From: a virus | IMG/VR virus record: IMGVR_UViG_3300025162_000016 | Location: 1-64,000 of that record | Length of the DNA stretch: 64,000 nt | Reading direction: 5' to 3' (one strand) | Shown: positions 6,416 to 34,360 of the stretch, in pieces | Layout of the letters: each line of letters starts with the position of its first letter | Position numbering within the stretch: the first letter of the stretch is position 1 | Translations under genes and position numbers: made by a program | The notes under the pieces: model-generated | Seen by the model: the letters and a program-made list of their open reading frames with translations, nothing else | Told to the model about the DNA's origin: nothing | The model's database searches: none

Positions 6416-6790
6416 ATGATTAAACTAAAAGATATTTTGTTTGAGCTTATTGATAAGAATGCGATATTATATTTAGGATGGGTTAAACGCAATAACCATG
6501 ATGTTATGGGAATGGACATTCAGTCTGGGGAGGATGAGACGCATCATAATTATATGCTCGGATTGCCTCCGGAATGGAGAAATGAATTTGATAGTAATTT
6601 ATTGAGATGGAGATATCGAAAAGATATTAATATTGTCTATTGGTGGGAGTTTGGTAATCCAACCGATGACGAGAAAGAGGCGGTAGAACACTGGATTGAA
6701 AAAAAATTAAATCAAAAAAATCCTTCTCATAAAATTATTCCTACCGATAAAAATAATATGACTTTTTGGAAATCTCATGGAGAAGATTAA
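6416..6790 (+). CDS. Hypothetical protein with MIKLK...L-x-E leader
   Basis: Internal ATG gives MIKLKDILFE, the leader shared with five other ORFs. The ORF track start at 6362 lies inside the mini-element. Confidence 0.5.
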   Translation: MIKLKDILFELIDKNAILYLGWVKRNNHDVMGMDIQSGEDETHHNYMLGLPPEWRNEFDSNLLRWRYRKDINIVYWWEFGNPTDDEKEAVEHWIEKKLNQKNPSHKIIPTDKNNMTFWKSHGED

Positions 6791-6805
6791 CAATGTCAAA
6801 TTTTG

Positions 6806-6971
6806 ATGTTGACATTTATAGAAATTCTGCTATAGTAATTCCAGTTCTAATAAAATAAACAGTTGTGGGTTGACGAGTAGGTGGTGTCCACTGCGTCAAC
6901 ATTAAAACTGCAACCGAAGTGAAATTCTGTCAAAAAATCGCTTGTTTTAATATATTTTTCCGGTGAAGAAT
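6806..6971. repeat. Inverted repeat, right arm (partner 1..166)
   Basis: See the left arm. Contains the long irregular hairpin CAGTT..GTTGACG..GTGGtgtCCAC..CGTCAAC..AACTG. Confidence 0.9.
6809..6836 (+). promoter_or_regulatory. sigma70-like promoter inside the right IR arm, firing rightwards out of the cassette
   Basis: TTGACA-16nt-TATAGT. Confidence 0.45.
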
Positions 6972-7143
6972 ATTAATAAACATAGGTTAATTGACTAACA
7001 AAAAGATGAGAATAGAAATATTCCAGCACGGAGTTTATAGTCCCGAGTGTTTTAAAAACCTAAATTTAGCGAGAATAAATTTCAATAGAACAGGTAACTA
7101 TCTGTGGGTCAATATAGTGTTGACCATAAACAAAAAAAAATAT

Positions 7144-7422
7144 ATGAAAATTCAATCAATCATTTTAGCAGTTTTATTATCTACTAGCACTTTTGCTTTC
7201 GCACAAGATACACCTCAACCTCGCCGACAGGGACCGCCTCCCACCGTTCAATGTGAGGGAATGAAAAACTTAATGAAAGCAATGCAAGATCATAGAAAAA
7301 CATGTGAAGTCTGCAAGACCAATCCTCCTCCGAGAGGAATGTTTGGTCCACGAATGGGCGGTAAACAGGGTCAGGGTCAAGGTAGAGGTCAGGGTAGAGG
7401 TCCGCAGGGTCCGCCTTCTTGA
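7144..7422 (+). CDS. Small secreted Pro/Gly/Gln-rich protein
   Basis: MKIQSIILAVLLSTSTFAFA|Q signal peptide. GQGQGRGQGRG tail. Confidence 0.45.
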   Translation: MKIQSIILAVLLSTSTFAFAQDTPQPRRQGPPPTVQCEGMKNLMKAMQDHRKTCEVCKTNPPPRGMFGPRMGGKQGQGQGRGQGRGPQGPPS

Positions 7423-7595
7423 AAATAAGTTTTAATAGATATTTCGGGATCTGCTCAATTGACATGGGAGTATATTTGAATATTTTAACCTTCCTCCGAA
7501 AGAAATCCCTTTCCTTTAGGTGAGGGATGAATTTCGGAATATAATTAATAATTTTTTGATGTTTCGTATTTCTCAATCATATGTATAAGTAGAAA

Positions 7596-8672
7596 ATGAA
7601 ATTTACTTATAAATATAGAATGTTTCCGACAAAAACCCAACAATCCATTCTAAATGGACAGTTGGAAACTTGTAGATTTCTTTATAATCATTTACTTGAA
7701 ATTAGGAAAAATGCATGGGAAAAAGAAAAAAAATCAATGTCCTGTTATGATACCCAAAATCTAATTCCTAAATTAAAAGAAGAATTTCCTCAACTCAAAT
7801 CTGTTTATTCACAAGTTCTCCAAAACGTAAATGTAAGAATTGATTTAGCATATCAAGGATTTTTTAGAAGATTGAAAAGTAATGAAAAATCTGGATATCC
7901 ACGCTTTAAAGGAAAAGGTAGATATAAATCCATTTGTTATTCACAATATGGAAATGGTTGTAAATTAGAAAAAAATAAATTATCTATTTCTAAAGTAGGA
8001 GATGTTTTCATTAAATTGCATAGACCAATTGAAGGTACACCGAAAACAGTTACTATAATAAAACAACCGACAGGTAAATGGTTCGTTTGTATTTCTTGTC
8101 AAGATGTTTCCAAAAAAATAAAGAATTTTCCCAAAACAAATAAAGAGTGTGGAATTGATGTTGGAATAACTTCGTTTGCTACTTTTGATAATGGTAATAA
8201 AATTGAAAATCCTCATTTTTTTGAAACCGAGGAAAAACAGTTATCAAAAGCACAAAATAAGGAAAAGTGGAAAGCGGTAAAAAGAATACATGAGAGGATT
8301 GGAAATAAGAGACATGAATTTCTTCATAAAATAACGAATGATATTCTTAAACAATATGATTTCATATCTATCGAAGATATTGATGTAAATTCTATTATAA
8401 GAAAAAGATGGAATAAGAAGCGGGTATATGATGTAGCGTGGAGTAATTTTGCAAACATACTTTCTCATAAAGCTGAAAATGCTGATAAGATTGTAGTAAA
8501 AATAAATCCGGCATATACTAGTCAGACATGTAGTGATTGCGGAACGAGAACAGTTATGGAAGAAAAGGATAGAATTTATAATTGTTCTTGTTGTGGGATG
8601 GTAAAAGATAGGGACGTGAATGCTGCAATAAACATTTTGAGATTGGGAACACAATCTCACGTTATTATATAA
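7596..8672 (+). CDS. tnpB: TnpB (IS605 OrfB-type RuvC nuclease)
   Basis: MKFTYKYRMFPTKTQ...LETCRFLYNHLLE N-terminus. GIDVGI, SIEDI, YTSQTCSDCG...CSCCG, DRDVNAAINI. Confidence 0.85.
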   Translation: MKFTYKYRMFPTKTQQSILNGQLETCRFLYNHLLEIRKNAWEKEKKSMSCYDTQNLIPKLKEEFPQLKSVYSQVLQNVNVRIDLAYQGFFRRLKSNEKSGYPRFKGKGRYKSICYSQYGNGCKLEKNKLSISKVGDVFIKLHRPIEGTPKTVTIIKQPTGKWFVCISCQDVSKKIKNFPKTNKECGIDVGITSFATFDNGNKIENPHFFETEEKQLSKAQNKEKWKAVKRIHERIGNKRHEFLHKITNDILKQYDFISIEDIDVNSIIRKRWNKKRVYDVAWSNFANILSHKAENADKIVVKINPAYTSQTCSDCGTRTVMEEKDRIYNCSCCGMVKDRDVNAAINILRLGTQSHVII

Positions 8673-8676
8673 CGAA

Positions 8677-8709
8677 GAAGCCCCTGCCTTTAGGCAGGGG
8701 AGTGTTCAC
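8677..8709 (+). ncRNA. Predicted 3'-terminal hairpin of the TnpB guide (omega) RNA scaffold, copy 1
   Basis: GAAG-CCCCTGCC-ttta-GGCAGGGG-AGTGTTCAC. The stem covaries with copy 2 while the flanks are conserved. Confidence 0.45.
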
Positions 8710-8724
8710 ATGCTATATATCATT

Positions 8725-9150
8725 ATGAAAAAGATATTCCATATACTTCTAGTCAGTTTAACCGTGTTTATATTAGCCGGTTGCACCACTGCTTTACAGT
8801 CAGATAAAATAATATCAATTAAAACTCGTTGTTTTGGGGTTATAATTGAAACCTCATCGATGTCTGCCAACAGTGTTCCAACAGTAAAGCTTGGATTCAT
8901 AAGTCAAGTAGTTCAATTAATTCCTACATCTACGAATGTTTTATATGCTCCAAATTATATGGACACTTTCGATCTAGGTCAGGGTATGAGTCCATTTAGC
9001 ACTACTATATCCGAAGATACCGGGACCGGTAATGTAATGTTAGATCCAGGTACCGCCACCATAATTACTACTAATAAAATGGGATTAGCTACCACTAATC
9101 ACGCTCCTTATAAATTAGGAGCAAGACTTCGCTCGCCTAAGCTGTTATAG
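8725..9150 (+). CDS. Lipoprotein, unknown function
   Basis: MKKIFHILLVSLTVFILAGC lipobox. Alternative start at 8710. The stop codon lies inside the degenerate terminal CRISPR repeat. Confidence 0.45.
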   Translation: MKKIFHILLVSLTVFILAGCTTALQSDKIISIKTRCFGVIIETSSMSANSVPTVKLGFISQVVQLIPTSTNVLYAPNYMDTFDLGQGMSPFSTTISEDTGTGNVMLDPGTATIITTNKMGLATTNHAPYKLGARLRSPKLL

Positions 9151-9612
9151 TAACTGGTCTGTTCCAGCACTTCACCTACTGGTGCGGCGGTTGGGCATGC
9201 CGACAACAAGCGGAGGTGATATAGTAACTGGTCTGTTCCAGCACTTCACCCAAAGCAAGATTTTTATTCGCTAAAGAACAGTGTGGAGGTGATATAGTAA
9301 CTGGTCTGTTCCAGCACTTCACCCTAATATGGGCGGTCCCGCTGGGGTATCCTATGGGGTGATATAGTAACTGGTCTGTTCCAGCACTTCACCCTAATTG
9401 CATTTCCTTTTTCTCGGTATCGAACCTACGGTGATATAGTAACTGGTCTGTTCCAGCACTTCACCCATCTATGAAAGAACGCATAGTAATGAAGTTAGCG
9501 AAAGGTGATATAGTAACTGGTCTGTTCCAGCACTTCACCACGGCGTGCGCCATTTAAGGAATCCCTTAGTTTCGCCGGTGATATAGTAACTGGTCTGTTC
9601 CAGCACTTCACC
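9141..9612 (-). CRISPR. CRISPR array with 7 repeats of 36 nt and 6 spacers of 34-38 nt
   Basis: Repeats at 9141, 9215, 9288, 9358, 9430, 9504 and 9577 (+ strand GGTGATATAGTAACTGGTCTGTTCCAGCACTTCACC). The 9141 copy is degenerate (GCTGTTATAG...), so the leader is placed at the 9613 side and the array on the minus strand. Confidence 0.9.
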
Positions 9613-9657
9613 TGTGTCCCTCGTAACTATCGTATTATCAAAGAACTATGTATCAAT

Positions 9658-9790
9658 TTGCGAGCGGTAGTGTATTCTATCGCCCTCGATTTGTCAACAT
9701 CAAATATCATATTTCGTAAGTTCCACATTATCAGCGAGTTACAAGTTGCGAGCGGCTATGGTATATTTGACACCACCTAACCGCTCGCAA
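9658..9790. promoter_or_regulatory. Three copies of the 10-mer TTGCGAGCGG in the putative leader (two direct, one inverted)
   Basis: 9658..9667 and 9746..9755 are direct. 9781..9790 is the reverse complement. Confidence 0.5.
9669..9697 (-). promoter_or_regulatory. sigma70-like promoter reading into the CRISPR array
   Basis: Minus strand reads TTGACA-17nt-TACACT, about 55 nt upstream of the first full repeat. Confidence 0.4.
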
Positions 9791-9864
9791 ATTAACATAA
9801 AAGTCTCATATGAGAAATCCAAAAATTGTAGACGTTTTATTTTAACCGGCATATATATATGCAG

Positions 9865-10320
9865 ATGATTAAACTAAAAAAACTTATCGAGACCCGAGGT
9901 CTGGAAACGCAGAATGATTATTCTCGGCAAGAAAGCATTGAACTCACTGGACCTGAAGAAACCGATATTGATTATTATGACGATTTAAATAGAATGGAAA
10001 AAGAATCTGGAATTAATATTCTCAGTAACAAAGAATTGAATACTTTAGCGGTTCAAGACGAAAAGCTGGTCGGAGCCCTCTATGTTTCGATGCAGAATGA
10101 CGAATTTTCCTTTGATGTTATTGTCGATAAATTAGCTAGAGGACAAGGAATTGGAGCTAAACTTATTGATACCGCCCTTTCGCAATATCGAGAGATGAAA
10201 AATGATATGAGATTAACGTTGAAATTAGATGTGGTCAATCAATGGGTCGAAAAATATCTTCTAAAAAAAGGACTAAAAATTGTGGGAAAATACGGTACTC
10301 ATACAATAATGACAATTTAA
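9865..10320 (+). CDS. GNAT-family acetyltransferase-like protein with MIKLK leader
   Basis: Motif A-like RGQGIGAKLIDTAL. N-terminus MIKLKKLIE. Confidence 0.45.
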   Translation: MIKLKKLIETRGLETQNDYSRQESIELTGPEETDIDYYDDLNRMEKESGINILSNKELNTLAVQDEKLVGALYVSMQNDEFSFDVIVDKLARGQGIGAKLIDTALSQYREMKNDMRLTLKLDVVNQWVEKYLLKKGLKIVGKYGTHTIMTI

Positions 10321-10435
10321 TTTTTCTTGTTATTTGTAGTTGACAGAAACGACAATGTGTGTTATCAATAAAAAAAGTTTAATTGTTCCTCGTGGAACAT
10401 CTCCACGAGGAATCATATGATATATATTATAACAT

Positions 10436-10981
10436 ATGATTAGATTAAAAAATATAGTAAATGGAATATTAGCCGAGGAGGAAAAAAGTTCGGAGGATAC
10501 GGTTGCGAATAATAAAGGATATAATATAAAAAATATTTATCATGGTACAACCGAGAAATTTAATGTATTCAAGTTTGATACATTAAAAAATGTAAAAGCA
10601 TCCGATACAGATAAGGTTATATATGCTACAGATTCCGAGGAAGAAGCTAAAATCGCCGGTAGTCCTGATAGCAGTCGATCTAAGGTGATGAAATTATATG
10701 GGAAATTAAAAAATCCTATGGTGGTTGATGCTAAAGGTACAGAAAAAAATAAAAGTTTTGGAACAATTGGTTATAAAAAATTAATACAAATGGCTAAAAG
10801 TAGGAATCATGACGGTGCCATTATAAAAAATGTTATCGATTTTGGTAATACTCCACAGACGACATACATATTTTTTGATACAAAGGCAGTTAAACTCGCC
10901 GGAGAAACTAAAGATAATAGCGGCAATTTAATTCCTTTATCACAGCGATTTAATTCAACCGTAGATGATTTGCGGTTTTGA
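10436..10981 (+). CDS. ART-like (polyvalent-protein type ADP-ribosyltransferase fold?) protein with leader. Paralog of 30841..31380
   Basis: MIRLKNIVNGILAEE leader. The IYHGT...F.F...(S/T).(S/E)EEA...LK.NP...HDG pattern is shared with the 30841 ORF. Confidence 0.35.
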   Translation: MIRLKNIVNGILAEEEKSSEDTVANNKGYNIKNIYHGTTEKFNVFKFDTLKNVKASDTDKVIYATDSEEEAKIAGSPDSSRSKVMKLYGKLKNPMVVDAKGTEKNKSFGTIGYKKLIQMAKSRNHDGAIIKNVIDFGNTPQTTYIFFDTKAVKLAGETKDNSGNLIPLSQRFNSTVDDLRF

Positions 10982-11079
10982 ATTGACATTTAGGAAGAAT
11001 GTGATAGTCTATTAAACATTTTAAGAGAAATATAGAAAAATATTGTAATTTGCGGAAAGTTGGTTATATTTATAACCAT

Positions 11080-11649
11080 ATGAAACTATCGAAATGGGCA
11101 AAATTGCAAGGAATAAGTTACAGAACAGCATGGTCTTGGTTTAAGAATAACACATTGCCTATTAAATCTTATCAAACTCCAACTGGAACTATTATAGTAG
11201 ATGACTCGTTGGATGTCAAAGAAAATAATAATGAAGTTGATATTTACTGTAGAGTTAGTTCCTCTAATAAAAAATTGGACTTAGACAATCAACTTAAATT
11301 ATGTGAAGAATATTGTATTTCTAATGGATACAAAATTAGAAAATCACTAAAAGAAATTGCATCGGGAATGAATGATAATCGACCAAGATTGAATTTAATT
11401 TTGGACAATCCATCAAATAAATTAGTAGTCCTTTATAAAGACAGATTAACAAGATTTGGATTTAATTATATAGAAAAACTATTAAAATCAAAAAAGTGTG
11501 AGTTGATAGTAATAAATCAAAACAAAACTGAGGAAGAGGACTTATTAAAAGACTTCATTGCTATTATTACATCGTTCTGTTGTAGAATGTATGGTGCGAG
11601 AAGAGGACAATCAAAAGCATTACGTATGAAACAGGAATTGAAAACATGA
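11080..11649 (+). CDS. tnpA: IS607-type TnpA (MerR-like HTH + serine recombinase)
   Basis: MKLSKWAKLQGISYRTAWSWFK HTH. IYCRVSSSNKK catalytic Ser block. LVVLYKDRLTRFGF. Confidence 0.8.
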   Translation: MKLSKWAKLQGISYRTAWSWFKNNTLPIKSYQTPTGTIIVDDSLDVKENNNEVDIYCRVSSSNKKLDLDNQLKLCEEYCISNGYKIRKSLKEIASGMNDNRPRLNLILDNPSNKLVVLYKDRLTRFGFNYIEKLLKSKKCELIVINQNKTEEEDLLKDFIAIITSFCCRMYGARRGQSKALRMKQELKT

Positions 11650-12890
11650 TTAGGAGTTCCAAACATTCTACAAAATTTACAAATCTTCGGAAAATGAAGA
11701 CATTGGCGTTGTTTATCTCGGAATATAGAAAAATAGGACAAGAAATTGTTGACATAATATGGAATAATGGATATGAAGAATTTAATATTCAGGAGGATAA
11801 ACTAAATTGTCCGAAATATCTCGATTATAAAAAATTCAACATAAATACATCCTTATCGGCTCGGGCATTAAGTTCTTTGGTTACACAGATATGTTTTAGT
11901 TTATCATCGGCAACAAAAAAACGAAAACAAATATTATATGCAAAGAATAAATTAATATCTGAAGGAAAGCCGCTTGGTAGAATTGATAAGATTCTCGATA
12001 AATATAAATTAATTAAACCAAATTTTTCAAACATCAATCCAGAATTGAGTTCAAAATGTTGCGATATTAAGGATGGAAATTCTTTTAATTATTTTTTAAG
12101 AATAAAATCAATAGGAAAAATATACGGATGTATTAAAATACCTATAAAAAATACAAAAGTATCATTAAAATGGTTAAAAAATGGAAAATTATTAAATTCA
12201 TTTTCTATTGGTCAGCAATATATTTCCCTACGATTTAATATTACAAATAAAAATGTAAATGTTGGAACTAAAATAATTGGAATTGATCAAGGACTGAAAG
12301 ATGTCGCAACATTATCAGACCATCAAATAACACCAAAATATGATATTCACGGGCATTCACTTGAATCAATTATAAATACGATATCAAAGAAGAAACGAGG
12401 TTCAGATGCATTTATTAAATCGCAGGAACATAGAAAAAATTTTATTAATTGGGCAATTAACCAATTAAATTTTAATGACGCCAAAGAAATTCGATTGGAA
12501 AAAATATGGAATATAGGATATAAACGGCGTACATCAAGAAGACTTTCACACTGGACGAATACGTTGATACGAGATAAGATTAAACGGAAATGCGAAGAGC
12601 TGGAGGTTCCAGTTATCGAGCAAGATTCCTCTTATCGCTCTCAACGATGTTCTTGTTGCGGATTAGTACGAAAGGCCAATAGAAATGGTAAAATATATAA
12701 ATGTAAAACTTGTAAATTTGAATCAGATGCTGATTATAATGCAAGTTTAAATCATATTGTAGATTTACCCGAAATCAGTTGGCAGTTTCGCAATCAACGA
12801 AATAATCTAAAATGTGGTTTTTACTGGAAGCCAAGTGGATTATTTAGTATTGATGGAGTGGAGCTTAGAGTCCCACTTTCTACCGATTAA
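11646..12890 (+). CDS. tnpB: TnpB-type RuvC nuclease (414 aa), candidate effector for the repeat-derived guide RNAs
   Basis: GIDQGLKD (RuvC I), IRLEKI (RuvC II), SSYRSQRCSCCG...YKCKTCKF zinc ribbon, DADYNASLNHI (RuvC III). Confidence 0.8.
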   Translation: MIRSSKHSTKFTNLRKMKTLALFISEYRKIGQEIVDIIWNNGYEEFNIQEDKLNCPKYLDYKKFNINTSLSARALSSLVTQICFSLSSATKKRKQILYAKNKLISEGKPLGRIDKILDKYKLIKPNFSNINPELSSKCCDIKDGNSFNYFLRIKSIGKIYGCIKIPIKNTKVSLKWLKNGKLLNSFSIGQQYISLRFNITNKNVNVGTKIIGIDQGLKDVATLSDHQITPKYDIHGHSLESIINTISKKKRGSDAFIKSQEHRKNFINWAINQLNFNDAKEIRLEKIWNIGYKRRTSRRLSHWTNTLIRDKIKRKCEELEVPVIEQDSSYRSQRCSCCGLVRKANRNGKIYKCKTCKFESDADYNASLNHIVDLPEISWQFRNQRNNLKCGFYWKPSGLFSIDGVELRVPLSTD

Positions 12891-12986
12891 GATAATTTTC
12901 TATATTTTATCTAACTCTATTAAACAATGAATAAACTAACAGAAAAATCATGATATTAACAATAGTTAGACACCAACTATACACAT

Positions 12987-13022
12987 GGTGAAGTGCTGGA
13001 ACAGACCAGTCACTATATCACC
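12987..13022 (+). repeat. Solo CRISPR repeat, inverted relative to the array (35/36 identity)
   Basis: GGTGAAGTGCTGGAACAGACCAGTCACTATATCACC equals the reverse complement of the array repeat with one T-to-C change. Confidence 0.9.
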
Positions 13023-13092
13023 AACGCATCCAGATTGTAAAAAAATGAGAGAATCGTTAGTAAACAAATAAACAAATAAAAAAATATAAATT

Positions 13093-13251
13093 ATGGGAAA
13101 TTCAAGAACAATAAAAAGAAGTATCGCCCGAAACCCAGAACGAGTATGGGTGGCTAAACAAACAGCAGCTAAACAAGAAGAAGATCGTCTTAATTCATTG
13201 AAGTCGAAGAATAACGTGGAATCTAAAGAAATATCCAAAGATTCTCTTTGA
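13093..13251 (+). CDS. Small basic protein (52 aa), hypothetical
   Basis: ATG...TGA ORF MGNSRTIKRSIARNPERVWVAKQ..., below the ORF-track cutoff. Confidence 0.3.
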   Translation: MGNSRTIKRSIARNPERVWVAKQTAAKQEEDRLNSLKSKNNVESKEISKDSL

Positions 13252-13370: not shown

Positions 13371-13380
13371 GCTTAGTTGT

Positions 13381-15062: not shown

Positions 15063-15182
15063 ATGAAATATAACCGCATTGTAATTTGGTGTGATGAATG
15101 TGATACACATCTCATCGAACCGGGTAAGAAATGTCCTAAATGTGGTCATAAGAAGGGTGATCCTAAGCGATTTAAAAAATGA
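15063..15182 (+). CDS. Zinc-ribbon miniprotein (39 aa)
   Basis: CDEC...CPKC. Its stop overlaps the next ATG (ATGA). Confidence 0.4.
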   Translation: MKYNRIVIWCDECDTHLIEPGKKCPKCGHKKGDPKRFKK

Positions 15183-27102: not shown

Positions 27103-27606
27103 ATGGCATTTACATTACCATCGCCATCATTACCCGTGCCACAAGCGCCACCGCTACCTGCTGTTCCTAAAATATCGCTTCCAAAAGGACCGGCACCTTT
27201 AAAAATAAATACTATAACAGGAAAGGGAGTTCCTGGTGGATTTACGGGCACCAATAAATTAATACCGAAGGTAGCAGCCGCAGGAGTTGCATCTAATATA
27301 GCCGCAATTGCAGCTAAGGTATCTTCTATAAAAGCATCAATACCCGGTGCAACAGCGGCTCAAGCTAAGTTAGCGGGATTAAAAGCAAAGGCGTTATCTA
27401 AAATAAAATCATTAGCTAAAGCTCCGGATTTAAGCAGTAAATTGAAATTACCGGCTCCCCCTAAAATACCGTCGCCACCTGATTTTTCTAGTTTGAATCT
27501 TCCTTCGGTTCCTGCTTTGCCGTCAGTGCCGTCAGTGCCGTCAGTGCCTTCGGTTCCTGCTTTGCCGTCATTACCGTCAGTGCCGAAATTACCAACTATT
27601 GGGTAA
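27103..27606 (+). CDS. Ala/Pro-rich protein with PSVPSVPSVPALPS repeats
   Basis: Low-complexity sequence. DNA tandem repeat at 27502..27584. Confidence 0.4.
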   Translation: MAFTLPSPSLPVPQAPPLPAVPKISLPKGPAPLKINTITGKGVPGGFTGTNKLIPKVAAAGVASNIAAIAAKVSSIKASIPGATAAQAKLAGLKAKALSKIKSLAKAPDLSSKLKLPAPPKIPSPPDFSSLNLPSVPALPSVPSVPSVPSVPALPSLPSVPKLPTIG

Positions 27607-27633
27607 AAAAACTATATTTATAGATACACACAT

Positions 27634-28365
27634 ATGAAAAAAGACGATTTAGTAAAAATAATTCGAGCGATTGTTCAACAGGAACTCAAAAGAGAACTGC
27701 CCAAGGCGCTTGCAAATGTATTTTCCAATTTAATGGGAACTCCACCGTCAGAAGTTCGTAATATGAAGACGGCAACTCCTATTTATAAGGGACAATCATT
27801 ACCACATAAACCATCGGCGGAAGAAATGCCGGACGAAATTGATGAAACCATTCAATTAAAACAGCAACTTCGAGAAATGTTTACAGATGGGGAACCGGCG
27901 AGACGAACTGCTCCTTTGCAAACAGTTCAACCACCGAAGGTTTATACAAAAAATCCAATTTTTAATGAAATTCTAAACCAAACTCGTCCGTTTAATGGAC
28001 AAGAGAGAATGGCGATGGGAGTTGGTGGCTCGGGAATGTCGCCATCAGTTATGATGGCAGCAGAGGGATTTCAATCGTCTACCGCAGCTATGACCGGGGT
28101 CGGAGAACTCATGGATGGTAATGAATTGGGATTTTTAAATAAAGTTCCGACAATGCCAGGAGCTGGTGGTCCGGTTTTAACGGAACTTCCGATGAATGTT
28201 AATACTATACGAGAAGGACAAGTAGGCGGAGCGGCTCCACTGGACGGAGTGTTTGTTGATTCGGCATTGGATTTGAAAAATCATCCTGCGCTTCCCGATA
28301 GCATTAAAGGAATTTTAAATCGTGATTATAGATCGTTAGTTAAAGCAATGAATAAGAAGAAATAA
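27634..28365 (+). CDS. Hypothetical baseplate-module protein
   Basis: ORF only, synteny. Confidence 0.35.
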   Translation: MKKDDLVKIIRAIVQQELKRELPKALANVFSNLMGTPPSEVRNMKTATPIYKGQSLPHKPSAEEMPDEIDETIQLKQQLREMFTDGEPARRTAPLQTVQPPKVYTKNPIFNEILNQTRPFNGQERMAMGVGGSGMSPSVMMAAEGFQSSTAAMTGVGELMDGNELGFLNKVPTMPGAGGPVLTELPMNVNTIREGQVGGAAPLDGVFVDSALDLKNHPALPDSIKGILNRDYRSLVKAMNKKK

Positions 28366-28366
28366 T

Positions 28367-28783
28367 ATGGCAACTAGAAAAATACCACTTGGATTGATGC
28401 TCCCGATTCGAGATGGGAACAGCGGGTATTTTGATCAGGCATACGATACTTTTACACAAAAACGTATGAATATTATCAATTTACTTCGCACAAAAACGGG
28501 TGAAAGAAGATTTCAACCTACATTTGGTTCAAGGTTGTGGACTGTATTATTTGAACAGAACATGGATATCTTACCAGATATTATAACAAATATCGTGAAA
28601 GAGGATATATCTAGATGGATAGATGGAGTAATTGTAAGAAAAGTAGATATTCAAGTGCCACAAATTAGCGAAACAACTGACTATCGAGATATTTATAGTT
28701 TGTTAGTTTCAGTAATTTTTGAGGATACCGCCACTCAACAACAAGGAACCGTTGAAATTTACATTAATAGCGGCAAAATATAA
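28367..28783 (+). CDS. Baseplate wedge protein, gp25/GPW-like
   Basis: INLLRTKTGERRFQPTFGSRLWTVLFEQ block. Confidence 0.7.
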   Translation: MATRKIPLGLMLPIRDGNSGYFDQAYDTFTQKRMNIINLLRTKTGERRFQPTFGSRLWTVLFEQNMDILPDIITNIVKEDISRWIDGVIVRKVDIQVPQISETTDYRDIYSLLVSVIFEDTATQQQGTVEIYINSGKI

Positions 28784-28864
28784 CTTATGGAAAAACATAC
28801 AAAAAATCGTGTCGAGTTCGGGGGTGCGGTCGAACTGATAAACAATGTATTAGGAGATTAAATT

Positions 28865-30844
28865 GTGCCGACTACCACTTCTAAAAATTTCACTCCAAAT
28901 TCTAAAGATATTCGATATCTTAATCGGGACTTTACTCAGTTAAGACAATCTCTTATGGATTTCGCCAAAACGTATTTTCCAAATACGTATAACGATTTTT
29001 CCACGGCATCTCCCGGCACGATGTTTATTGAAATGGCAGCATATGTCGGAGATGTACTTAGCTATTATACGGATTATGCATTTAAAGAAAGCATGATCCA
29101 AAACTCGACTGAGCGTAGAAATATTATATCTCTTGCGAACTATCTGGGATATAAAGTGAAACCAATTCAAGGCGCTATCGGAACCATTGAGCTTTTTCAA
29201 TTATGTCCAGCCAAAGAAAATGCGGTGGGAGTTTATGTTCCGGATACCGATTATGCACTTAGAATAAAAGAAGACATGCAAGTGTCGAATAATGCGGGGT
29301 CGTATTATGTTCTTAATGATTCGGTAGATTTTGCCGTAAGCACTTCATTATCTCCTCGAACGGATGCAGTATATTCCAGAAATCAAGATGGCACCCCACA
29401 ATTCTTTTTGCTTCAGAAAACCGGCAAGATAGCTGCGGGAAAAGTATCTACAAAAACAATTACAGTGAATTCTCCTACCCCGTTTTTTCAAATATATTTA
29501 AATGAAACTAATGTATTGGGAATAATTGATGTGGTAGACTCTAACAACAATGAATGGCATGAAGTCGATTTTCTAGCACAAGAATTAGTTCCGATTGCGA
29601 TTCCTAATGATTCGGAACATGAAGGCACATTGTCTACCTATAAAGATTCGGTTCCATATATTTTGAAGTTTTTGAGAACCCCTAATCGGTTCACTGTAAA
29701 CGTAGATTCAAATAACTTTACTTATTTAGAATTTGGAGCAGGAACAGAAGGATTTTCTGAAGAATTCGTGACATTTGATTCCAAATTAATTGGTATCGGA
29801 TTAAGAAATATTAGTAATTATAATATTCCATTTGATCCTGCTAATTTTCTTAAAAATAAAACCTATGGGGTTGCTCCATCTAACACAACATTGACGATTC
29901 GTTATTTAACGGGCGGCGGAATTAACTCAAATTCCCCCTCAAACGCAATTAGAAATGTAGTGTCAGTAGAGTTTGATAATCCAACAGATGGACTTCCTCC
30001 GGAAAAAAATAATTTATTAAATACCGTAAAAAATTCGTTGCAAGTTAATAATTCAATTGCTACAGTAGGGGGGAAAGAAGGAGAAACTGATAATGAAGTG
30101 AAAATGAATGCAACTGCTAATTTTGCCACTCAAAATCGAGCCGTAACCAAAGATGATTATTTGGTACGTATTTATTCTCTTCCTCCGAAATTCGGTTCTA
30201 TAGCAAAAGCTCAAGTAATTACTGATACCAGTTTAAACGTGGGAGTAAATAGGGTATTATCGGGAACTATAAATTCAGAAAATATTGCAACAGTAACCGA
30301 TAATGCAACTGCTAATTATTTCCGAAAAATATCATATGATTCCTCAAATCCATTTTCCATCAACATTTATTTGTTGGGATATGACGAAAATAAAAACTTA
30401 ACTCCCGTGAATTCGGCTTTGTTAACTAATCTGATTACGTATATGAAACGTTATCGGATTATGACGGATGGAGTAAATCTTATCGATGGTTATATTATTA
30501 ATATTGGAGTGAATTTTGCAATCACCGTATATAAAGGATATACGAAAAAAGATGTTTTATCGGAATGCATTCAAACTATTCAAAACTTTTTTAATATTGA
30601 TAATTGGAATTTTTCTCAACCAATCAATCTTAGTCAATTAGAATTAGAAATCGCCAAAGTCGAAGGGGTTCAATCTATAGTTAATTTAGAGATTATTAAT
30701 AAAACAACGTTAGATGGAAACTATTCTGCGGTGGAATACGATATTTCATCGGCCACCAAAAATAATATTATATATCCATCAACAGATCCTAGTTGCTGGG
30801 AAATAAAATATCCTAATAGTGATATTATAGGGAGATGTTCATGA
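28865..30844 (+). CDS. Baseplate J/gp6-like protein
   Basis: GTG start. FTQLRQSLMDFAKTYFPNTYNDFSTASPGTMFIEMAAYVGDVLSYY block. Synteny after the gp25-like gene. Confidence 0.6.
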   Translation: MPTTTSKNFTPNSKDIRYLNRDFTQLRQSLMDFAKTYFPNTYNDFSTASPGTMFIEMAAYVGDVLSYYTDYAFKESMIQNSTERRNIISLANYLGYKVKPIQGAIGTIELFQLCPAKENAVGVYVPDTDYALRIKEDMQVSNNAGSYYVLNDSVDFAVSTSLSPRTDAVYSRNQDGTPQFFLLQKTGKIAAGKVSTKTITVNSPTPFFQIYLNETNVLGIIDVVDSNNNEWHEVDFLAQELVPIAIPNDSEHEGTLSTYKDSVPYILKFLRTPNRFTVNVDSNNFTYLEFGAGTEGFSEEFVTFDSKLIGIGLRNISNYNIPFDPANFLKNKTYGVAPSNTTLTIRYLTGGGINSNSPSNAIRNVVSVEFDNPTDGLPPEKNNLLNTVKNSLQVNNSIATVGGKEGETDNEVKMNATANFATQNRAVTKDDYLVRIYSLPPKFGSIAKAQVITDTSLNVGVNRVLSGTINSENIATVTDNATANYFRKISYDSSNPFSINIYLLGYDENKNLTPVNSALLTNLITYMKRYRIMTDGVNLIDGYIINIGVNFAITVYKGYTKKDVLSECIQTIQNFFNIDNWNFSQPINLSQLELEIAKVEGVQSIVNLEIINKTTLDGNYSAVEYDISSATKNNIIYPSTDPSCWEIKYPNSDIIGRCS

Positions 30845-31380
30845 TTAAATTGAAAGTATTATTATTTGAAGGTATGACTGATACTCCTGAATTCAAGCAA
30901 TGGTTTGGACAGAGTAAAGTTGTGGATGAACATGGACAACCAAAAGTAGTGTATCACGGAACATCAAAAAGTAGAGATTTTTCAAAATTCAATAAAAAAG
31001 GAGGGGGCTCTTGGTTTACTTCTAGCAAAGAAGAAGCTTCTAAGTATGCAGAACGTAACGATTTTAGCGATATCAGGGGGCACGATGAACATGGAGTTCC
31101 ATATGGGAGTAATGTAAGCAGTAGAATATATCCGGTTTACCTTAAAATAGAAAATCCCAAATTACTTACATCAAAGGAAATTGAATGGTGGAGACATCAA
31201 AAGGATTATCGTAGCGCCAACAAAGAACTTTTAGCTAGAGCATTTGCCGCAGGACACGATGGTATTGATATGGGTAATGGTAATTACGTTGTTCACAAGC
31301 CGGAACAAATCAAATCAGCAATAGGCAATAAAGGAATGTTTGATCCTAAACATCCAGATATAACCAAAGAAACTATTTAA
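30841..31380 (+). CDS. ART-like protein with MIKLK leader. Paralog of 10436..10981
   Basis: MIKLKVLLFE leader. EFKQWFGQSKVVDEHGQPKVVYHGTS block as seen at the N-termini of polyvalent phage proteins. Confidence 0.4.
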   Translation: MIKLKVLLFEGMTDTPEFKQWFGQSKVVDEHGQPKVVYHGTSKSRDFSKFNKKGGGSWFTSSKEEASKYAERNDFSDIRGHDEHGVPYGSNVSSRIYPVYLKIENPKLLTSKEIEWWRHQKDYRSANKELLARAFAAGHDGIDMGNGNYVVHKPEQIKSAIGNKGMFDPKHPDITKETI

Positions 31381-31381
31381 A

Positions 31382-34051
31382 ATGCATCACCACCTATTTC
31401 CAGAATCGGATACATATGTAACGAATGAATCCGGATTCGAAGATAAAAATTTCGGTATAAATGAAATTCTTCGAATTGGAACTTCTACTTCTCCCATGCG
31501 AGTTTTAGAAGACACGAAAGATTATCCTTATTCAAATGTGATATGGACGAATCATTGTATCACAAATTTTACGGGAATCTTAACTGGTTCTTTTTCCGGT
31601 GCAGCGGAGTCTGTATACGGAACAATTATAGCCTCCGCTTCATTTAGTTCTTCTTATTTCAATGGATATTTCGATGGGGTTTTAGTAGAATCCAGCGGAG
31701 GGTTTTCGGGAAGTGTGGATGGAATTGTTTCCGGTTCTTTAACTGCATCCGTGTTTCCAAATTTCGATGGACAATTAACAAGTTCTTATGGAAAAATTAC
31801 AGGAACGGTAACCGGAATAGATACTAGAAATGAAAATCATTGGGTAACTACTGCAACTAAATTAGTTGATAGAACTATAATTAAATTCGATTTAAATACT
31901 ATTTCCGCTTCGGTTGCCAATGGAGAAATTACAAATCCGGAATTTAAATTAAATTTAAAAGTGTGTAATGAATATGAATTACCGATTTCATATGCTATTT
32001 ATGCGTTTCCAGTAAGTCAAAGTTGGGTGATGGGAAATGGTTATTTTTCTGATGGAGGATCTTATACCGGAGCCAGTTGGTATTATCGAGATTACGTTGC
32101 AGGGACGGCATGGTATGCTCCTATTACTACTAGTTTAAGACCAGTCGTTGATTTTTTTAACACCGAAAGTAACGCAACTGCATCTTTTGCATATGGCGGA
32201 GGAACTTGGTATTACGATTCAGCGTCAAAACAAGATTTCTCATATGAATCCGCCGATATTTCGATGGATGTTACAGATATTGTAATGACATGGATAAACG
32301 GAACACTTCCAAATAATGGATTCATTTTGATGTCATCGGATGAAATAGTGGCCAGTGGTTCCGGATTCGCTTTAACGTTTTATAGTAAAGACACCAATTC
32401 CATAAATTCACCATACCTCGATGTAATGTGGAGTGATTGGATAGGAGAATCTGGAAGTGTTGATATATCTAGCGCAAATATAATAACGCCCTATCTCGGC
32501 CTTTCGGGAGAGGTGCAAAATGGGTCGTCGTTATCCGGAAATTCGATTTTATCAGGAGGTTCAACAAATGCAAGTCAACTTAGTGGGAGTTTTTCCGGCA
32601 GTTCATTGGTTAATTTTACTTTGAATTATATTACGGCTAGTAATGCACCGGTAAATAACTTATGTGTATTTCAATTTACGGGAAGTTTAACGGGGTCTTT
32701 TTTAGGAACAGCTTCTTATGCTTTAGGAATAATTTCCGGAGGTATCGTGGATTTTTATACAGATTATTTTACCGGAAATATTGATGGCACTCCTTCCACA
32801 ATAACAAGCGGAAAAGTATTAAGTAATTCTTCTGTTTTAGGATCAATTACGGGCTCGGTAATTACTAGCACATATCTCGGGGATTTTTCCGGATCAATAA
32901 CGAGTTCAAATCTGTATATATCGGGGGGTGTATCTGGCACATACTTAGATACTATATTCCATAATTTCAATGGATTTTTTGCATGTAACGGGTTTACCGG
33001 AAATATAAGCGGAGTTCCAGTTATAGGCAACGTTCAGGGATTGATTACTATAGATCCAGCTTCGGTATATACCCCAACGGACATGACAACGCTGTATCCG
33101 AGCATGCCGTATAATCAATCTCCCTACTCCACGGGATATCAAAATCTTTATTCGGATTCACCTTATAATGGACTTATAAATGTCTGGTATACATGGATGG
33201 GAGACACTTGGACGTCGAATGTGCCGGCATATCCAACCTATCCAATAACCACTTCCTGTGGGAATATTCCTCATCAAGCGCAAACTATGATGGGCACTCT
33301 TACTAGTGGCGTTTTTAGTGGAAGTCATTTTGTAGCATATTATTCAAACTATTCAATTCTTATTGGATCTTTACAAGGATTTTATACAACAGAGGCATTA
33401 CTTAATTCAACCGTAACTATTCCTCTCCCATCCGGTATAGATCCATATGCATATGCATACTTCACCGGAACATATGTCAATGGGACGGCAATGGGACTTT
33501 ATAATTTATATCCCAACAGTCATGATAGCTCTAGTTTTACTGGTCAATTTATAAATGGAGAACTTTTGGGTAGCTATGTTACTATACAATTAAGCGGAAG
33601 TATGTATACTTCAAGTTATTCTTATACGGGAAGTGTAAATTATACCTCCAACACATTTAAGCAACTTGATACTAATAGTCCATTTACGGTGATTGTAAAG
33701 AATCTCAAACCTACTATTAAAAGCGGAGATTTAATTCAAGTAAATGTATTTGGAAGACAAGAATTTCCTCTTAAAACATTTGAAAAGACATCACAACAAT
33801 CAGAATATGTTATTCCTAAATTGTTGCCATCGGCATCATATTATGCAATTAAAGATAATATGAGTGAGGAAATGATTATTGATTTCGATCGGTTTACGCA
33901 AATTAGTTCAAAGTATCCAAACGGAAACTTTTTCGTATTAGATACCACTGGATTAGCGCAAGAAAGATCGTATCGGGTGTTAATACGAATACATAACAGT
34001 TCCTCTATTTATACATTTGATGATAACAATGTATTTAAAATAACAAGATAA
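31382..34051 (+). CDS. Large fibre/baseplate structural protein
   Basis: 889 aa, Ser/Gly/Thr-rich repeats. The N-terminal region (DTYVTNE...NFG...LRIG ... DVTDIVMTWINGTLPNNGFIL) resembles a carbohydrate-binding module. Confidence 0.4.
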   Translation: MHHHLFPESDTYVTNESGFEDKNFGINEILRIGTSTSPMRVLEDTKDYPYSNVIWTNHCITNFTGILTGSFSGAAESVYGTIIASASFSSSYFNGYFDGVLVESSGGFSGSVDGIVSGSLTASVFPNFDGQLTSSYGKITGTVTGIDTRNENHWVTTATKLVDRTIIKFDLNTISASVANGEITNPEFKLNLKVCNEYELPISYAIYAFPVSQSWVMGNGYFSDGGSYTGASWYYRDYVAGTAWYAPITTSLRPVVDFFNTESNATASFAYGGGTWYYDSASKQDFSYESADISMDVTDIVMTWINGTLPNNGFILMSSDEIVASGSGFALTFYSKDTNSINSPYLDVMWSDWIGESGSVDISSANIITPYLGLSGEVQNGSSLSGNSILSGGSTNASQLSGSFSGSSLVNFTLNYITASNAPVNNLCVFQFTGSLTGSFLGTASYALGIISGGIVDFYTDYFTGNIDGTPSTITSGKVLSNSSVLGSITGSVITSTYLGDFSGSITSSNLYISGGVSGTYLDTIFHNFNGFFACNGFTGNISGVPVIGNVQGLITIDPASVYTPTDMTTLYPSMPYNQSPYSTGYQNLYSDSPYNGLINVWYTWMGDTWTSNVPAYPTYPITTSCGNIPHQAQTMMGTLTSGVFSGSHFVAYYSNYSILIGSLQGFYTTEALLNSTVTIPLPSGIDPYAYAYFTGTYVNGTAMGLYNLYPNSHDSSSFTGQFINGELLGSYVTIQLSGSMYTSSYSYTGSVNYTSNTFKQLDTNSPFTVIVKNLKPTIKSGDLIQVNVFGRQEFPLKTFEKTSQQSEYVIPKLLPSASYYAIKDNMSEEMIIDFDRFTQISSKYPNGNFFVLDTTGLAQERSYRVLIRIHNSSSIYTFDDNNVFKITR

Positions 34052-34054
34052 CCT

Positions 34055-34360
34055 ATGATTTATTTAAAAAATTTAATTTCGAAAGTTCTAAATGAAGGAG
34101 TGTTATCTAAATTGGTAAGTATACCAGACCCTCTTAAACAAAAACTAGGAACTGTTATTGCCAAATGGTATTCTGATAAACGTTCACAAGAACAATCGGG
34201 AAAATTGTTGCCGAGTCTGGGAGTTCGGCTGGAAAAAATAAAAGTCACTGTCGAGAAACTTGGATTTACTAAACATCGAGACATGACTGGCGCAACTGAA
34301 ATTGAATTAGCTATAGATATGTTATATCGTTTTCATATGAGGCAATCAAAAAATGTATGA
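34055..34360 (+). CDS. Hypothetical protein with leader (MIYLKNLISKVLNE)
   Basis: Leader motif. Confidence 0.45.
   Translation: MIYLKNLISKVLNEGVLSKLVSIPDPLKQKLGTVIAKWYSDKRSQEQSGKLLPSLGVRLEKIKVTVEKLGFTKHRDMTGATEIELAIDMLYRFHMRQSKNV

Follow-up and report, generated by a model that had tools for sequence, protein, structure and literature searches.

Six plus-strand genes in the window, the 64,000-nucleotide stretch of viral DNA analysed here, begin with a common ten-residue N-terminal tag, and this MIKLKxL[LIV]xE leader is probably a signal for capsid targeting and cleavage like that of T4. This reading is supported, though not proven, by strong comparative evidence, from which we infer that the tagged proteins are present in the virion, lose the leader and are injected. 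We read the tag as a T4-like signal with a new consensus, which would be used by an abundant uncultured clade.

Sequence and conservation of the leader

The tag follows the consensus M-I-K-L-K-x-[LI]-[LIV]-x-E or a near variant (MIKLKxLLxE or MIKLKxL[LIV]xE), and it also occurs in a 14-residue long form and in an M-x-x-IKLK form (Table 1). Within residues 7-14, each leader ends in an [L/I]-x-E of the prohead-protease site type (LFE, LIE, LAE, LIE, LFE and LNE), and the Glu at position 9 or 10 is conserved across the instances of the tag family. ORF callers sometimes pick alternative upstream ATGs (6362, 9859 and 30835).

Table 1 Tagged genes and landmark late genes in the window.
Feature	Coordinates	Strand	N-terminus	Matrix score (bits)	Description
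Tagged protein 1, 124 aa	6416..6790	+	MIKLKDILFE	+21.0	Leader 6416-6445; alpha/beta domain without family match
Tagged protein 2, 151 aa	9865..10320	+	MIKLKKLIE	+14.9	GNAT acetyltransferase domain after leader (PF00583, 3.5e-7; phrog_1249)
Tagged protein 3, 181 aa	10436..10981	+	MIRLKNIVNGILAEE	+9.7	Long-form leader MIRLKNIVNGILAE, then ART-PolyVal ADP-ribosyltransferase domain (PF18760, 8e-10)
Tagged protein 4, 225 aa	15179..15856	+	MSHIKLKHLIEE	+29.9	Leader MSH-IKLKHLIEE; Gly/Ala-rich hydrophobic stretch LGALGLAGSLLTSPASA; basic linker; C-terminal peptidoglycan-hydrolase domain (NNPGNI motif)
Tagged protein 5, 179 aa	30841..31380	+	MIKLKVLLFE	+20.0	Leader, then ART-PolyVal (PF18760, 4e-20)
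Tagged protein 6, 101 aa	34055..34360	+	MIYLKNLISKVLNE	+7.7	Long-form leader; cargo without family match
Late structural genes 5' of and coupled to 30841	28367..30844	+			gp25-like, 28367-28783; gp6-like baseplate wedge, 28865-30844
Large terminase gene, first piece	60566..61159	+			Start of a T4-type head module running past the end of the window

All six N-termini of the original prediction were found at their predicted positions. A regular expression for the tag (^M.{0,2}[ILV][KRY][LI]K.{1,9}[LI].E), run on 2475 Met positions in six frames, matched the six tagged genes and one spurious minus-strand site, whereas 200 shuffles gave a mean of 0.165 chance matches and a maximum of 2. In addition, we scored the starts with a position matrix that was trained on leaders of other phages only. 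Five of the six leaders scored between +7.7 and +21 bits, and that of gene 15179 reached +29.9 when read from its third residue. The best non-member start among 607 Met positions in ~106 kb of this phage scored -9.5, leaving a 17-bit gap between the tagged starts and the next best one. One further N-terminus resembling the tag, at 52573 (MILQSNLLSLLNE), belongs to a DNA primase, scores -15.5 on the matrix and was rejected as a member.

The similarity among the six genes starts at the ATG: 15-22 of the first 30 nt are common, compared with just 6-14 of the 40 nt upstream. At the conserved tag residues (35 instances) the codons vary synonymously, with ATT, ATC or ATA for Ile, AAG or AAA for Lys, and TTA, CTA, CTT, TTG or CTG for Leu, indicating that the tag is conserved at the protein level. 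A DNA-level similarity, which had also been pointed out, is therefore present but secondary, as it results from the protein-level conservation together with AT-rich codon use. The tag is thus real, modular, not due to chance and conserved at the protein level.

These data bear on a different explanation, in which the common N-terminus is a translation or expression device, namely an A/U-rich unstructured start (AUG AUU AAA YUN AAA) for hosts that do not rely on Shine-Dalgarno sequences, with no role in localisation. We found no clear ribosome-binding sites upstream of the tagged genes, many genes of this phage begin with MKK, and the nearest cultured relatives infect Flavobacterium and cyanobacteria, all of which would suit such a device. 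However, the codons vary and include G/C-containing ones (ATC, AAG and CTG) while the residues are fixed, and neither the invariant Glu at position 9 or 10 nor the [LI] two residues earlier serves a role in initiation. Moreover, highly expressed structural genes do not carry the tag, and the tag pattern is linked to head-assembly genes whereas a composition-matched control pattern is not (see below). Taken together, this explanation is very unlikely.

Cargo and location of the tagged genes

The domain calls of the original prediction were confirmed: a GNAT protein at 9865, ART paralogs at 10436 and 30841, an NNPGNI protein at 15179, and two proteins without family match at 6416 and 34055. Its count of six unrelated proteins has to be lowered to five unrelated cargo families, as the two ARTs are distantly paralogous (27% identity).

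The leader is kept in 13 of 13 homologues of the 6416 protein, although the cargo diverges to 54% identity (range 54-72%); L4 is invariant, M1, I2 and E10 are nearly so, and the MIKLK Met is the start in most of them. In an AF2 model of this protein (pLDDT 79) the leader is predicted as a low-confidence N-terminal helix (residues 4-13) before a globular core, and a Foldseek search returned no significant match in the PDB. A homologue of the 34055 protein (P0135) likewise keeps the leader (MISLKALLLETLTE), the relative L006 has a different GNAT-like cargo with the same leader as 9865, and the M-x-x-IKLK subtype of 15179 is also found in the relatives L104 and L126.

The C-terminal domain of the 15179 protein matches PDB entries 7q47 ('Endolysin', 9e-14) and 9vvp (Gp29, 1e-22), and the protein matches phrog_873 (6.6e-44) and phrog_7182, a 'tail injection transglycosylase'. 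Its residues 18-34, which come after a 12-residue tag with the highest matrix score, fit by eye the segment of a SAR or signal-peptide endolysin, so this protein could instead be an exported endolysin with a hydrophobic stretch behind its leader. By extension, the leader itself might be part of an export or membrane-targeting signal. The hydrophobic Gly/Ala-rich segment of 15179 is followed by ASA-SP, and lipoproteins are encoded by neighbouring genes. Nevertheless, no hydrophobic segment follows the leader in the other five tagged proteins. The leader itself carries acidic residues and lacks the length and hydrophobicity of a signal peptide, and the true lipoproteins of the window (207, 5295, 8725 and 13656) begin differently. 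An export function of the leader is hence barely credible.

Two of the tagged genes, 30841 and 34055, lie within the baseplate operon and are translationally coupled to it. Gene 30841 is inserted directly 3' of the gp6-like gene, whose TGA its ATG overlaps as ATGA; it is missing from the close relatives L003-L005, and L006 has a different tagged gene at that site. Gene 34055 sits between baseplate-module genes with a 3-nt gap upstream and a 4-nt overlap downstream. The remaining four tagged genes fall in an accessory region that shows no visible connection to late genes; scans for promoters gave nothing informative.

The head module in this phage and its relatives

If the leader is a prohead-protease signal, the protease should be encoded and the major capsid protein (MCP) should carry the same cleavage motif, a check that the original prediction had proposed and that came out in its favour for the protease of this phage and for the MCPs of relatives. 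In the same contig, the head module continues beyond the window with the portal, small core-like proteins and then a gp21-like protease (L169 11632-12711); the Portal_T4 (PF07230, T4 gp20-like) and Peptidase_S77 (PF03420, T4 gp21 family) domains are found ~6-11 kb past its end. PF03420 is matched on both sides of a mini-intein, and after removal of the intein the protease is collinear with those of relatives and keeps the catalytic His (ELDHP) and Ser (GISSRALGS). A match to the structure of T4 gp21 (5JBL, 2.5e-15) and one to the Pfam family (2e-27) were obtained with the protease of a close relative.

The evidence on the scaffold and the gp23-like MCP comes from relatives only and not from this phage's own genes; in the closest relatives, these two genes are not adjacent to the protease. 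In an alignment of 40 relatives' MCPs to T4 gp23, L-[LI]-x-E is invariant at the gp23 maturation site, and the relatives' capsid proteins have Q-L-[LI]-x-E at the gp23 cut position (FLTE|AE). The nearest MCPs to those of the clade are from Microcystis phage Mel-JY01 and Flavobacterium phage immuto (~51% identity), followed by Rhodothermus phage RM378 (36%). The strict MIKLK form was not found in the regions examined of Mel-JY01 and immuto, and in the literature we found no virion proteome of this clade and no phage paper containing the string 'MIKLK'.

In relatives with 51-86% portal identity, the tag is present on many small proteins interleaved with the portal, protease, scaffold and MCP genes, as exemplified by L126, where other [LI]-x-E N-termini occur as well. 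This arrangement argues against the leader being an N-terminal degron or adaptor tag for a phage ClpP and AAA+ pair that sets the time at which early effectors are destroyed. N-terminal ClpX recognition motifs are indeed short and mix hydrophobic with basic residues, and ClpP (PF00574) and an AAA protein are encoded ~3 kb upstream of the window. The tagged genes are linked to the portal, protease and MCP rather than to the clpP locus, though, and the conserved [LI]-x-E fits gp21-type specificity and the MCP maturation site, making a degron highly improbable.

A blind scan of IMG/VR

We scanned IMG/VR blind for the DNA pattern of the tag, using a codon-permuted, composition-matched pattern as the control. 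Matches coincided with starts of ORFs of at least 60 aa in 106 of 125 cases for the tag pattern and 17 of 80 for the control. Loci with at least two matches, which represent tandem arrays of tagged genes, numbered 15 for the tag pattern and 0 for the control. A prohead protease was present in the same locus (within 15 kb) for 31 of 118 compared with 1 of 120 (p = 7e-10), a portal for 27 compared with 0, and any head marker for 38 compared with 2 (p = 2e-11), while a gp6-like baseplate gene near the matches showed no enrichment (3 compared with 7). The tag therefore co-localises with head-morphogenesis genes across the family.

The 106 tagged proteins from IMG/VR fall into 68 distinct families with a median length of 154 aa. 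Their Pfam domains include ART-PolyVal, GNAT, MPTase-PolyVal (a polyvalent-type metallopeptidase), SprT-like and zeta-toxin-like kinase domains among others, and cell-wall hydrolases are also represented. Scanning relatives with a leader profile, which had been suggested as a way to enumerate further cargo, yielded many more members, in at least 68 unrelated small-protein families that are often in tandem and lie around portal, protease, scaffold and capsid genes. The expectation that cytoplasmic proteins do not bear the tag holds within ~106 kb of this phage, where no identifiable protein of replication, recombination or metabolism has it, but not fully in relatives, where a few tagged proteins are not obviously host-directed and would be expected in the cytoplasm (a CCA-adding enzyme, a Mom-like protein and a DnaQ-like exonuclease).

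The location of the tagged genes would also be compatible with a tag that marks prohead-core or scaffold components, which would enter proheads and be degraded by the protease in maturation instead of being delivered as active effectors. T4 gp22, gp67 and gp68 are core or scaffold components with this fate. In relatives, the tagged families with the widest distribution are conserved proteins of the head module that are small, acidic or coiled-coil-like; the L116/L121 family adjoins the scaffold gene, the L129 family lies just upstream of the portal, and they look structural rather than enzymatic. On the other hand, the tagged proteins of the window and many of those in relatives are enzymes whose chemistry is directed at the host (ART, GNAT, muramidase and metallopeptidase), the tagged genes occupy variable positions, and the folded core is distinct from the leader. 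We consider degradation of the tagged proteins as core components unlikely. The two readings overlap, in that one tag could serve both classes as in T4.

Proposed mechanism and implications

In the capsid-targeting reading, the tagged proteins would be made late, along with the structural proteins, and the N-terminal helix of ~10-14 residues would carry them into the scaffolding core while the prohead assembles. The gp21-family serine protease would cut behind the Glu of the terminal [LI]-x-E, and the mature enzymes would remain free in the head with the DNA. In the next infection, the cargo would exit with the DNA and act on the host ahead of any phage gene expression; that of this phage would consist of two ADP-ribosyltransferases, an acetyltransferase, a cell-wall hydrolase and two unknowns. 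Among these steps, we infer binding to the prohead core, cleavage at the Glu, residence in the virion and injection. The cargo classes also support this scheme, as an ART resembling T4 Alt, polyvalent-protein domains and cell-wall hydrolases all belong to the types of protein for which packaging and injection are known or predicted.

There is an about even chance that the tag is an address label for a very large head-packaged, injected set in an abundant, almost entirely uncultured aquatic clade of the T4 superfamily, with dozens to hundreds of unrelated cargo families made as separate small proteins. If so, the set would take in domains that elsewhere are strung into giant polyvalent proteins, together with unexpected enzymes such as the CCA-adding enzyme, DnaQ-like exonuclease, zeta-like kinase and Mom-like protein. 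In that case, the tag would allow new early-acting effectors of anti-defence and host takeover to be picked out straight from metagenomes by sequence alone. The tag can also serve to catalogue the proteins that phages of this large uncultured group probably inject into their hosts.

Comparison with known systems

In T4, diverse internal proteins have only the conserved capsid-targeting sequence (CTS) in common, which brings them into the scaffolding core (PMC3012670). The CTS of IPI, IPII, IPIII and Alt is likewise an N-terminal tag of ~10 residues on otherwise unrelated small proteins that ends in [LI]-x-E, the gp21 site type. A gp21-family protease and a gp20-type portal are present here as well, with a gp23-type capsid protein carrying the same site in relatives. 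The tagged cargo resembles T4 Alt in including an ADP-ribosyltransferase, with some tagged genes lying among baseplate genes like alt, and resembles the T-even IP locus in that the cargo genes are variable and can form arrays. However, the T4 CTS (MKTYQEFIAE) scores -22.7 on the family matrix and agrees with the present tag only in length and the terminal [IL]-x-E; the present tag is therefore analogous to, or highly diverged from, the T4 CTS rather than the CTS itself. The tag-bearing clade is only distantly related to T4, and its predicted cargo repertoire, with at least 68 families among 106 sampled proteins, is far larger.

In the giant phages phiKZ, 201phi2-1 and SPN3US, many head-internal proteins are matured by a gp21-related protease at x-x-E, and part of them enter the host by ejection. 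Their cleavage motif is S/A/G-x-E and their propeptides are long and unlike one another, in contrast to the one short common N-terminal tag described here. Short peptide signals also steer diverse cargo into an HK97-fold shell in phage P1 Dar and encapsulin. The P1 Dar proteins are injected anti-restriction factors, but they use a hierarchy of packaging partners instead of a common tag, and encapsulin cargo signals are usually C-terminal and not removed.

The closest parallel in cargo is found in polyvalent proteins, whose effector domain set is predicted to be packaged and injected (Iyer, Burroughs, Anand, de Souza, Aravind 2017, PMC5512222); the same study also noted the link of T4 Alt-family ARTs to baseplate genes. 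The same domains recur here (ART-PolyVal, MPTase-PolyVal, GNAT, lysozyme/transglycosylase, SprT-like and zeta-like), in a match that is large but not complete, and the predicted strategy, in which enzymes enter along with the DNA as infection begins, is the same. The repertoire is thus shared (PF18760 and PF18818) but the architecture is not: a homologous ART of Dolichospermum phage Dfl-JY45 lies inside a 2387-aa polyvalent protein, and polyvalent proteins carry 2-15 disparate effector domains per polypeptide, whereas the tagged proteins here have one domain each and a tag of their own.

A peptide leader shared by six genes of the window

Six genes of the window had been predicted to share an N-terminal leader, M-I-K-L-K-x-L...[LI]-x-E (consensus here MIKLKxL[LIV]xE), and each of the six N-termini was recovered at its predicted start. 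When the tag core followed by a downstream [LI]-x-E was searched as a regular expression at the 2475 Met positions in the six frames of the window, it matched the six tagged genes and one spurious minus-strand site, while 200 shuffles of the window gave a mean of 0.165 matches and a maximum of 2. The tagged genes are alike from the ATG on, with 15-22 common positions in the first 30 nt and just 6-14 in the upstream 40 nt. Because the similarity starts at the ATG and the upstream DNA is dissimilar, we rejected a common promoter or ribosome-site cassette. In addition, the tagged genes were not associated with the T4 late-promoter motif TATAAATA, with sigma-70-like sites or with terminators in scans for these elements. 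In 35 non-identical instances of the family, the conserved leader residues are encoded by several synonymous codons, indicating that selection acts on the peptide. A role as a translation-initiation device would leave unaccounted for this codon variation, the invariant Glu and the linkage to head genes described below.

We also scored starts with a position matrix trained on leaders from other phages only. Five window genes scored +7.7 to +21 bits and gene 15179, in register, +29.9, while the next best start among 607 Met positions in ~106 kb of this phage scored -9.5; a leader profile, a check proposed along with the original prediction, separates the six tagged genes from the other starts. 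The look-alike N-terminus MILQSNLLSLLNE was rejected as a member (DNA primase, -15.5), and a 516-aa ORF upstream of the window beginning MRIKLNEIRSVIRE was excluded as uncertain (-3.1).

Coordinates of the features in the window and in metagenome contigs (L084 and L169, same phage, extending beyond the window ends; L126 and L153, relatives)
Feature	Location	Strand	Detail
Leader MIKLKDILFE	6416	+	N-terminus read from sequence
Leader MIKLKKLIE	9865	+	N-terminus read from sequence; GNAT cargo, domain match
Leader MIRLKNIVNGILAEE	10436	+	N-terminus read from sequence; ART-PolyVal cargo, distant paralog of 30841 (27% identity)
Leader MSHIKLKHLIEE	15179	+	N-terminus read from sequence; peptidoglycan-hydrolase domain cargo, domain match
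Leader MIKLKVLLFE	30841	+	N-terminus read from sequence; ART-PolyVal cargo, distant paralog of 10436
Leader MIYLKNLISKVLNE	34055	+	N-terminus read from sequence
Hydrophobic stretch of 15179	15230-15280		residues 18-34
Cargo swap at 6416	6170-6990; L084 15430-16630
Rejected look-alike	52573
Excluded ORF	L084 2782-4332
Internal leader-like sequence	L153 4877-7573
Second N-terminal motif	27634-28365; L126 9062, 14132, 15139, 15432, 18319, 19827; L169 10899, 14517
Intein-interrupted terminase, portal, protease	L169 2778-6914, 6872-9931, 11632-12711
C1 peptidase gene with intein	741-2459
TnpB / DUF7487 genes	7596-8672, 11080-12890, 61125-62573; L169 12806-14500, 16371-18154
TnpB / DUF7487 gene	51312-52412	-
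SbcD-SbcC-like fusion	53664-56876
Auxiliary genes	5295-6170; L084 6377-8120; L169 15025-15981; 22104-22634
Glycosyltransferase cluster	42922-47798
FG-GAP/dockerin-repeat protein	47854-50214

The phage encodes T4-type head genes

Megablast of 14 kb of the window found no match among GenBank phages, and its large structural proteins have almost no PHROG or Pfam matches. The window encodes gp25-like and gp6-like baseplate proteins, and the nearest cultured relatives are Microcystis phage Mel-JY01 and Flavobacterium phage immuto. The largest public contig carrying the exact proteins P0001 and P0121 is 368,758 bp long; the phage may be a jumbo phage, unless this contig is a concatemer or chimera.

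Public metagenome contigs with the same genes were used to read ~10 kb past each window end. The gene order after the window end is large terminase, portal, a conserved 301-aa protein, two small proteins and prohead protease. Inteins interrupt the terminase gene and are also present in the portal, which is of T4 gp20 type (PF07230), while the protease is a Peptidase_S77 of the T4 gp21 family. A mini-intein interrupts the protease gene three residues past the catalytic His; the rest of the protein is collinear with the proteases of relatives that lack the intein, and both ELDHP and GISSRALGS are retained. In a close relative with 84% portal identity the protease has no intein, and it matched PF03420 (2e-27) as well as 5JBL, the crystal structure of T4 gp21 (2.5e-15). 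Because a gp20-type portal and a gp21-family protease are encoded, the head of this phage is, judging from its genes, assembled by T4-type machinery that includes a gp21-family protease.

The gp21 prohead protease cuts after [L/I]-x-E. On the proposed check of whether the protease and the major capsid protein (MCP) show the cleavage motif of the leader, this phage has a gp21-family protease and the MCPs of relatives have [LI]-x-E; tblastn with relatives' proteins found neither its own MCP nor its scaffold in the window and the accessible DNA of the phage and close relatives. The gp23-type capsid proteins of relatives align to T4 gp23, in which the maturation site is FLTE↓AE; at that column, 40 of 40 distinct aligned N-termini carry Q-L-[LI]-x-E with A or S as the next residue. 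An MCP family search matched 2581 phage records, classical T4-likes included; the closest were Mel-JY01, immuto, an uncultured 484-kb phage and Rhodothermus phage RM378.

The leader is linked to head genes in relatives

In relatives, which were IMG/VR contigs picked via gp6-like, portal or capsid proteins, the MIKLKxL[LIV]xE N-terminus was found on many different small proteins, the genes of which lie scattered among those for portal, protease, scaffold and capsid. The portal-to-capsid stretch of one contig (L126) has about a dozen small genes, several of which begin MIKLIDLLFE, MKNIKLKSLLKE or MKSIKLKELLKE, and others have a second helical N-terminal motif, MKxTKKQLxEIIxEE. Leader-stripped clustering gave 16 cargo families in 35 proteins of relatives, with Pfam matches to ART-PolyVal (4.4e-5), GNAT (5.4e-5) and PGDYG (1.9e-4), all below Pfam score cut-offs. 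In Mel-JY01 and immuto, neither the head region nor the baseplate region has the strict MIKLK tag, which for now makes these two cultured phages unsuitable as test systems.

We further scanned IMG/VR with a degenerate DNA pattern for M-I-K-L-K-x-L-x-x-E and with a control pattern of the same codons reordered (M-K-L-K-I-x-E-x-x-L), and compared the two by the properties of the matches listed, not by total counts. The contrast in markers indicates that the leader pattern picks out phages of this clade and, inside their genomes, the head-morphogenesis region. A reading of the leader as a degron for the phage ClpP and AAA pair finds no linkage support.

Leader and control patterns in IMG/VR, among the matches listed
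Property	Leader	Control	p
ORF starts (ORF of 60 aa or more, upstream stop no more than 20 codons away)	106/125	17/80
Loci with two to four matches	15	0
Loci with gp21-like protease (leader-stripped markers)	31/118	1/120	7e-10
Loci with portal	27	0
Loci with 301-aa protein	30	0
Loci with scaffold	18	0
Loci with capsid protein	16	1
Loci with any head marker	38	2	2e-11
Loci with gp6-like baseplate marker	3	7

The 106 tagged proteins among the matches listed (median length 154 aa) belong to at least 68 families. Pfam matches in 36 representatives among the matches listed were MPTase-PolyVal, SprT-like, a zeta-toxin-like kinase, DUF5661 with an RNase T-type exonuclease, a Mom-family protein and a CCA-adding or poly(A) polymerase with an HD domain; clade markers are present in most loci with these cargoes.

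A second N-terminal motif, MK(K)x(S/T)ELxxIIRxxIxEE, is also helical, contains [LIV]-x-E and recurs on small head-module proteins of relatives as well as on a conserved baseplate-module protein found in every relative examined. It may mark another class of targeting or cleavage signal, or be a helix used more generally in assembly. In some relatives (L149, L153, L167 and L168), the leader-like MITLKLKKLKECINEE lies ~110-200 residues inside a ~900-aa ORF and is followed by sequence similar to a tagged metallopeptidase cargo that occurs elsewhere; two tagged genes may have fused here, or the start may have been wrongly called.

Cargo proteins of the window

Domain searches agreed with the cargoes named in the original prediction, namely GNAT, two ART paralogs, an NNPGNI domain, which is a peptidoglycan-hydrolase domain, and two proteins (6416 and 34055) with no match. 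Homologs of 6416 retain the leader although the cargo diverges down to 54% identity, and the AF2 model of 6416 places the leader in a helix of its own, of low confidence, preceding a compact core. Since Foldseek with the structure model returned weak gelsolin/cofilin-like matches alone (TM about 0.4), we give this cargo no function. Other contigs of the same phage have an untagged 203-216-aa ORF in place of 6416, between pstS and the next lipoprotein gene, a strain-level cargo swap.

In the 15179 protein, the leader is directly followed by a Gly/Ala-rich hydrophobic stretch and then ASA-SP. The stretch looks like a signal-arrest-release or signal-peptide segment, and the product may be a membrane-active ejection protein or an exported lysin. 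These features would suit a leader that serves as an export signal, but such a role fits 15179 alone of the tagged genes.

Genes 30841 and 34055 are insertions in the baseplate operon of the window and are absent from three close relatives (L003-L005); at the same baseplate junction, another relative (L006) carries a tagged gene of a different kind, which is GNAT-like. The start codon of 30841 overlaps the stop codon of the gp6-like gene, and 34055 is tightly packed among structural genes, implying late co-expression of both.

Other features of the genome

Inteins are unusually frequent, as the terminase, portal and prohead protease are each interrupted, and a papain-family (C1) peptidase gene has an intein holding an HNH domain. 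The phage has several IS605/IS607-type TnpB genes, one of them paired with a resolvase-like gene, as well as homing endonucleases of the DUF7487 type; a homing endonuclease gene lies at 61125. The positions of these genes vary between samples' contigs of the same phage: a TnpB gene follows the 913-aa gene in L088 and not in the window. A single protein of 1070 aa combines an SbcD-like (Mre11) with an SbcC-like (Rad50) domain, whereas the T4 counterparts are two proteins, gp47 and gp46. Auxiliary genes encode a phosphate-binding PstS with a lipoprotein signal, ClpP and an AAA+ protein, an IMPDH/GMP-reductase family protein and HSP20. A glycosyltransferase cluster, in which the gene for a GT2 protein of 747 aa with two domains is joined by four smaller ones, lies in the lowest-GC stretch of the window (0.285-0.30) and precedes an FG-GAP/dockerin-repeat protein.

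Proposed function of the leader

The best reading of the leader, in our view, is the one originally predicted, a capsid-targeting and protease signal. The leader would act as a T4-like capsid targeting sequence (CTS), bringing diverse proteins into the prohead core; the gp21-type protease would remove it after the Glu of [LI]-x-E, and the cargo would reside in the virion and then enter the host together with the DNA. The sequences directly show the tag and its modularity, the protease, the portal, the capsid site of the family and the linkage to head genes; targeting, cleavage, residence in the virion and injection are inferred. From this comparative evidence, a targeting and cleavage function is probable, and the delivery of active enzymes by injection is somewhat less so. 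Some tagged proteins, especially the conserved acidic ones of the head module, may instead be core or scaffold parts that are merely degraded, which is compatible with the same function of the tag.

Proteins injected with phage DNA act ahead of any phage gene expression and are therefore prime candidates for counter-defence and host takeover, and they are difficult to recognise in sequence. We know of no simple sequence rule for finding them outside the T-even phages. If the tag is a packaging signal, a ten-residue pattern would list injected proteins across a widespread uncultured phage group, including the cargo families sampled among the matches listed, most of which have no assigned function. 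For phage-defence research, this could provide a listing of candidate injected effectors of an abundant uncultured group from sequence alone.

Comparison with known systems

A full-text literature search for the string MIKLK returned nothing on phages, and searches for 'Mel-JY01' and 'ART-PolyVal' returned nothing relevant. The tagged system would work like the CTS/internal-protein system of T4. Sequence-testable defining features of that system present in this phage are an N-terminal sequence common to unrelated proteins, its [LI]-x-E end, a gp21-family protease and a gp20-type portal; a scaffold and a gp23-type MCP with the motif are present in relatives. T4 offers a precedent, in that its diverse internal proteins have just a conserved CTS in common, which brings them into the scaffolding core (PMC3012670). 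The T4 CTS, MKTYQEFIAE, is not homologous to the tag (matrix score -22.7), the clade is distant from T4, and its cargo set is much larger than that of T4. If it is a packaging signal, the tag would add to the T4 CTS an unrelated peptide by which foreign proteins could be loaded into heads of the T4 type. The T4 ADP-ribosyltransferase Alt is packaged and injected, and Alt-family genes adjoin baseplate genes (PMC5512222). Polyvalent proteins differ from the tagged system in architecture, and in Dolichospermum phage Dfl-JY45 a homologous ART domain lies inside a 2387-aa polyvalent protein. The ART here is of the polyvalent type, and the clade therefore seems to deliver such effector domains singly, one tag each, which would join two usually separate strategies.
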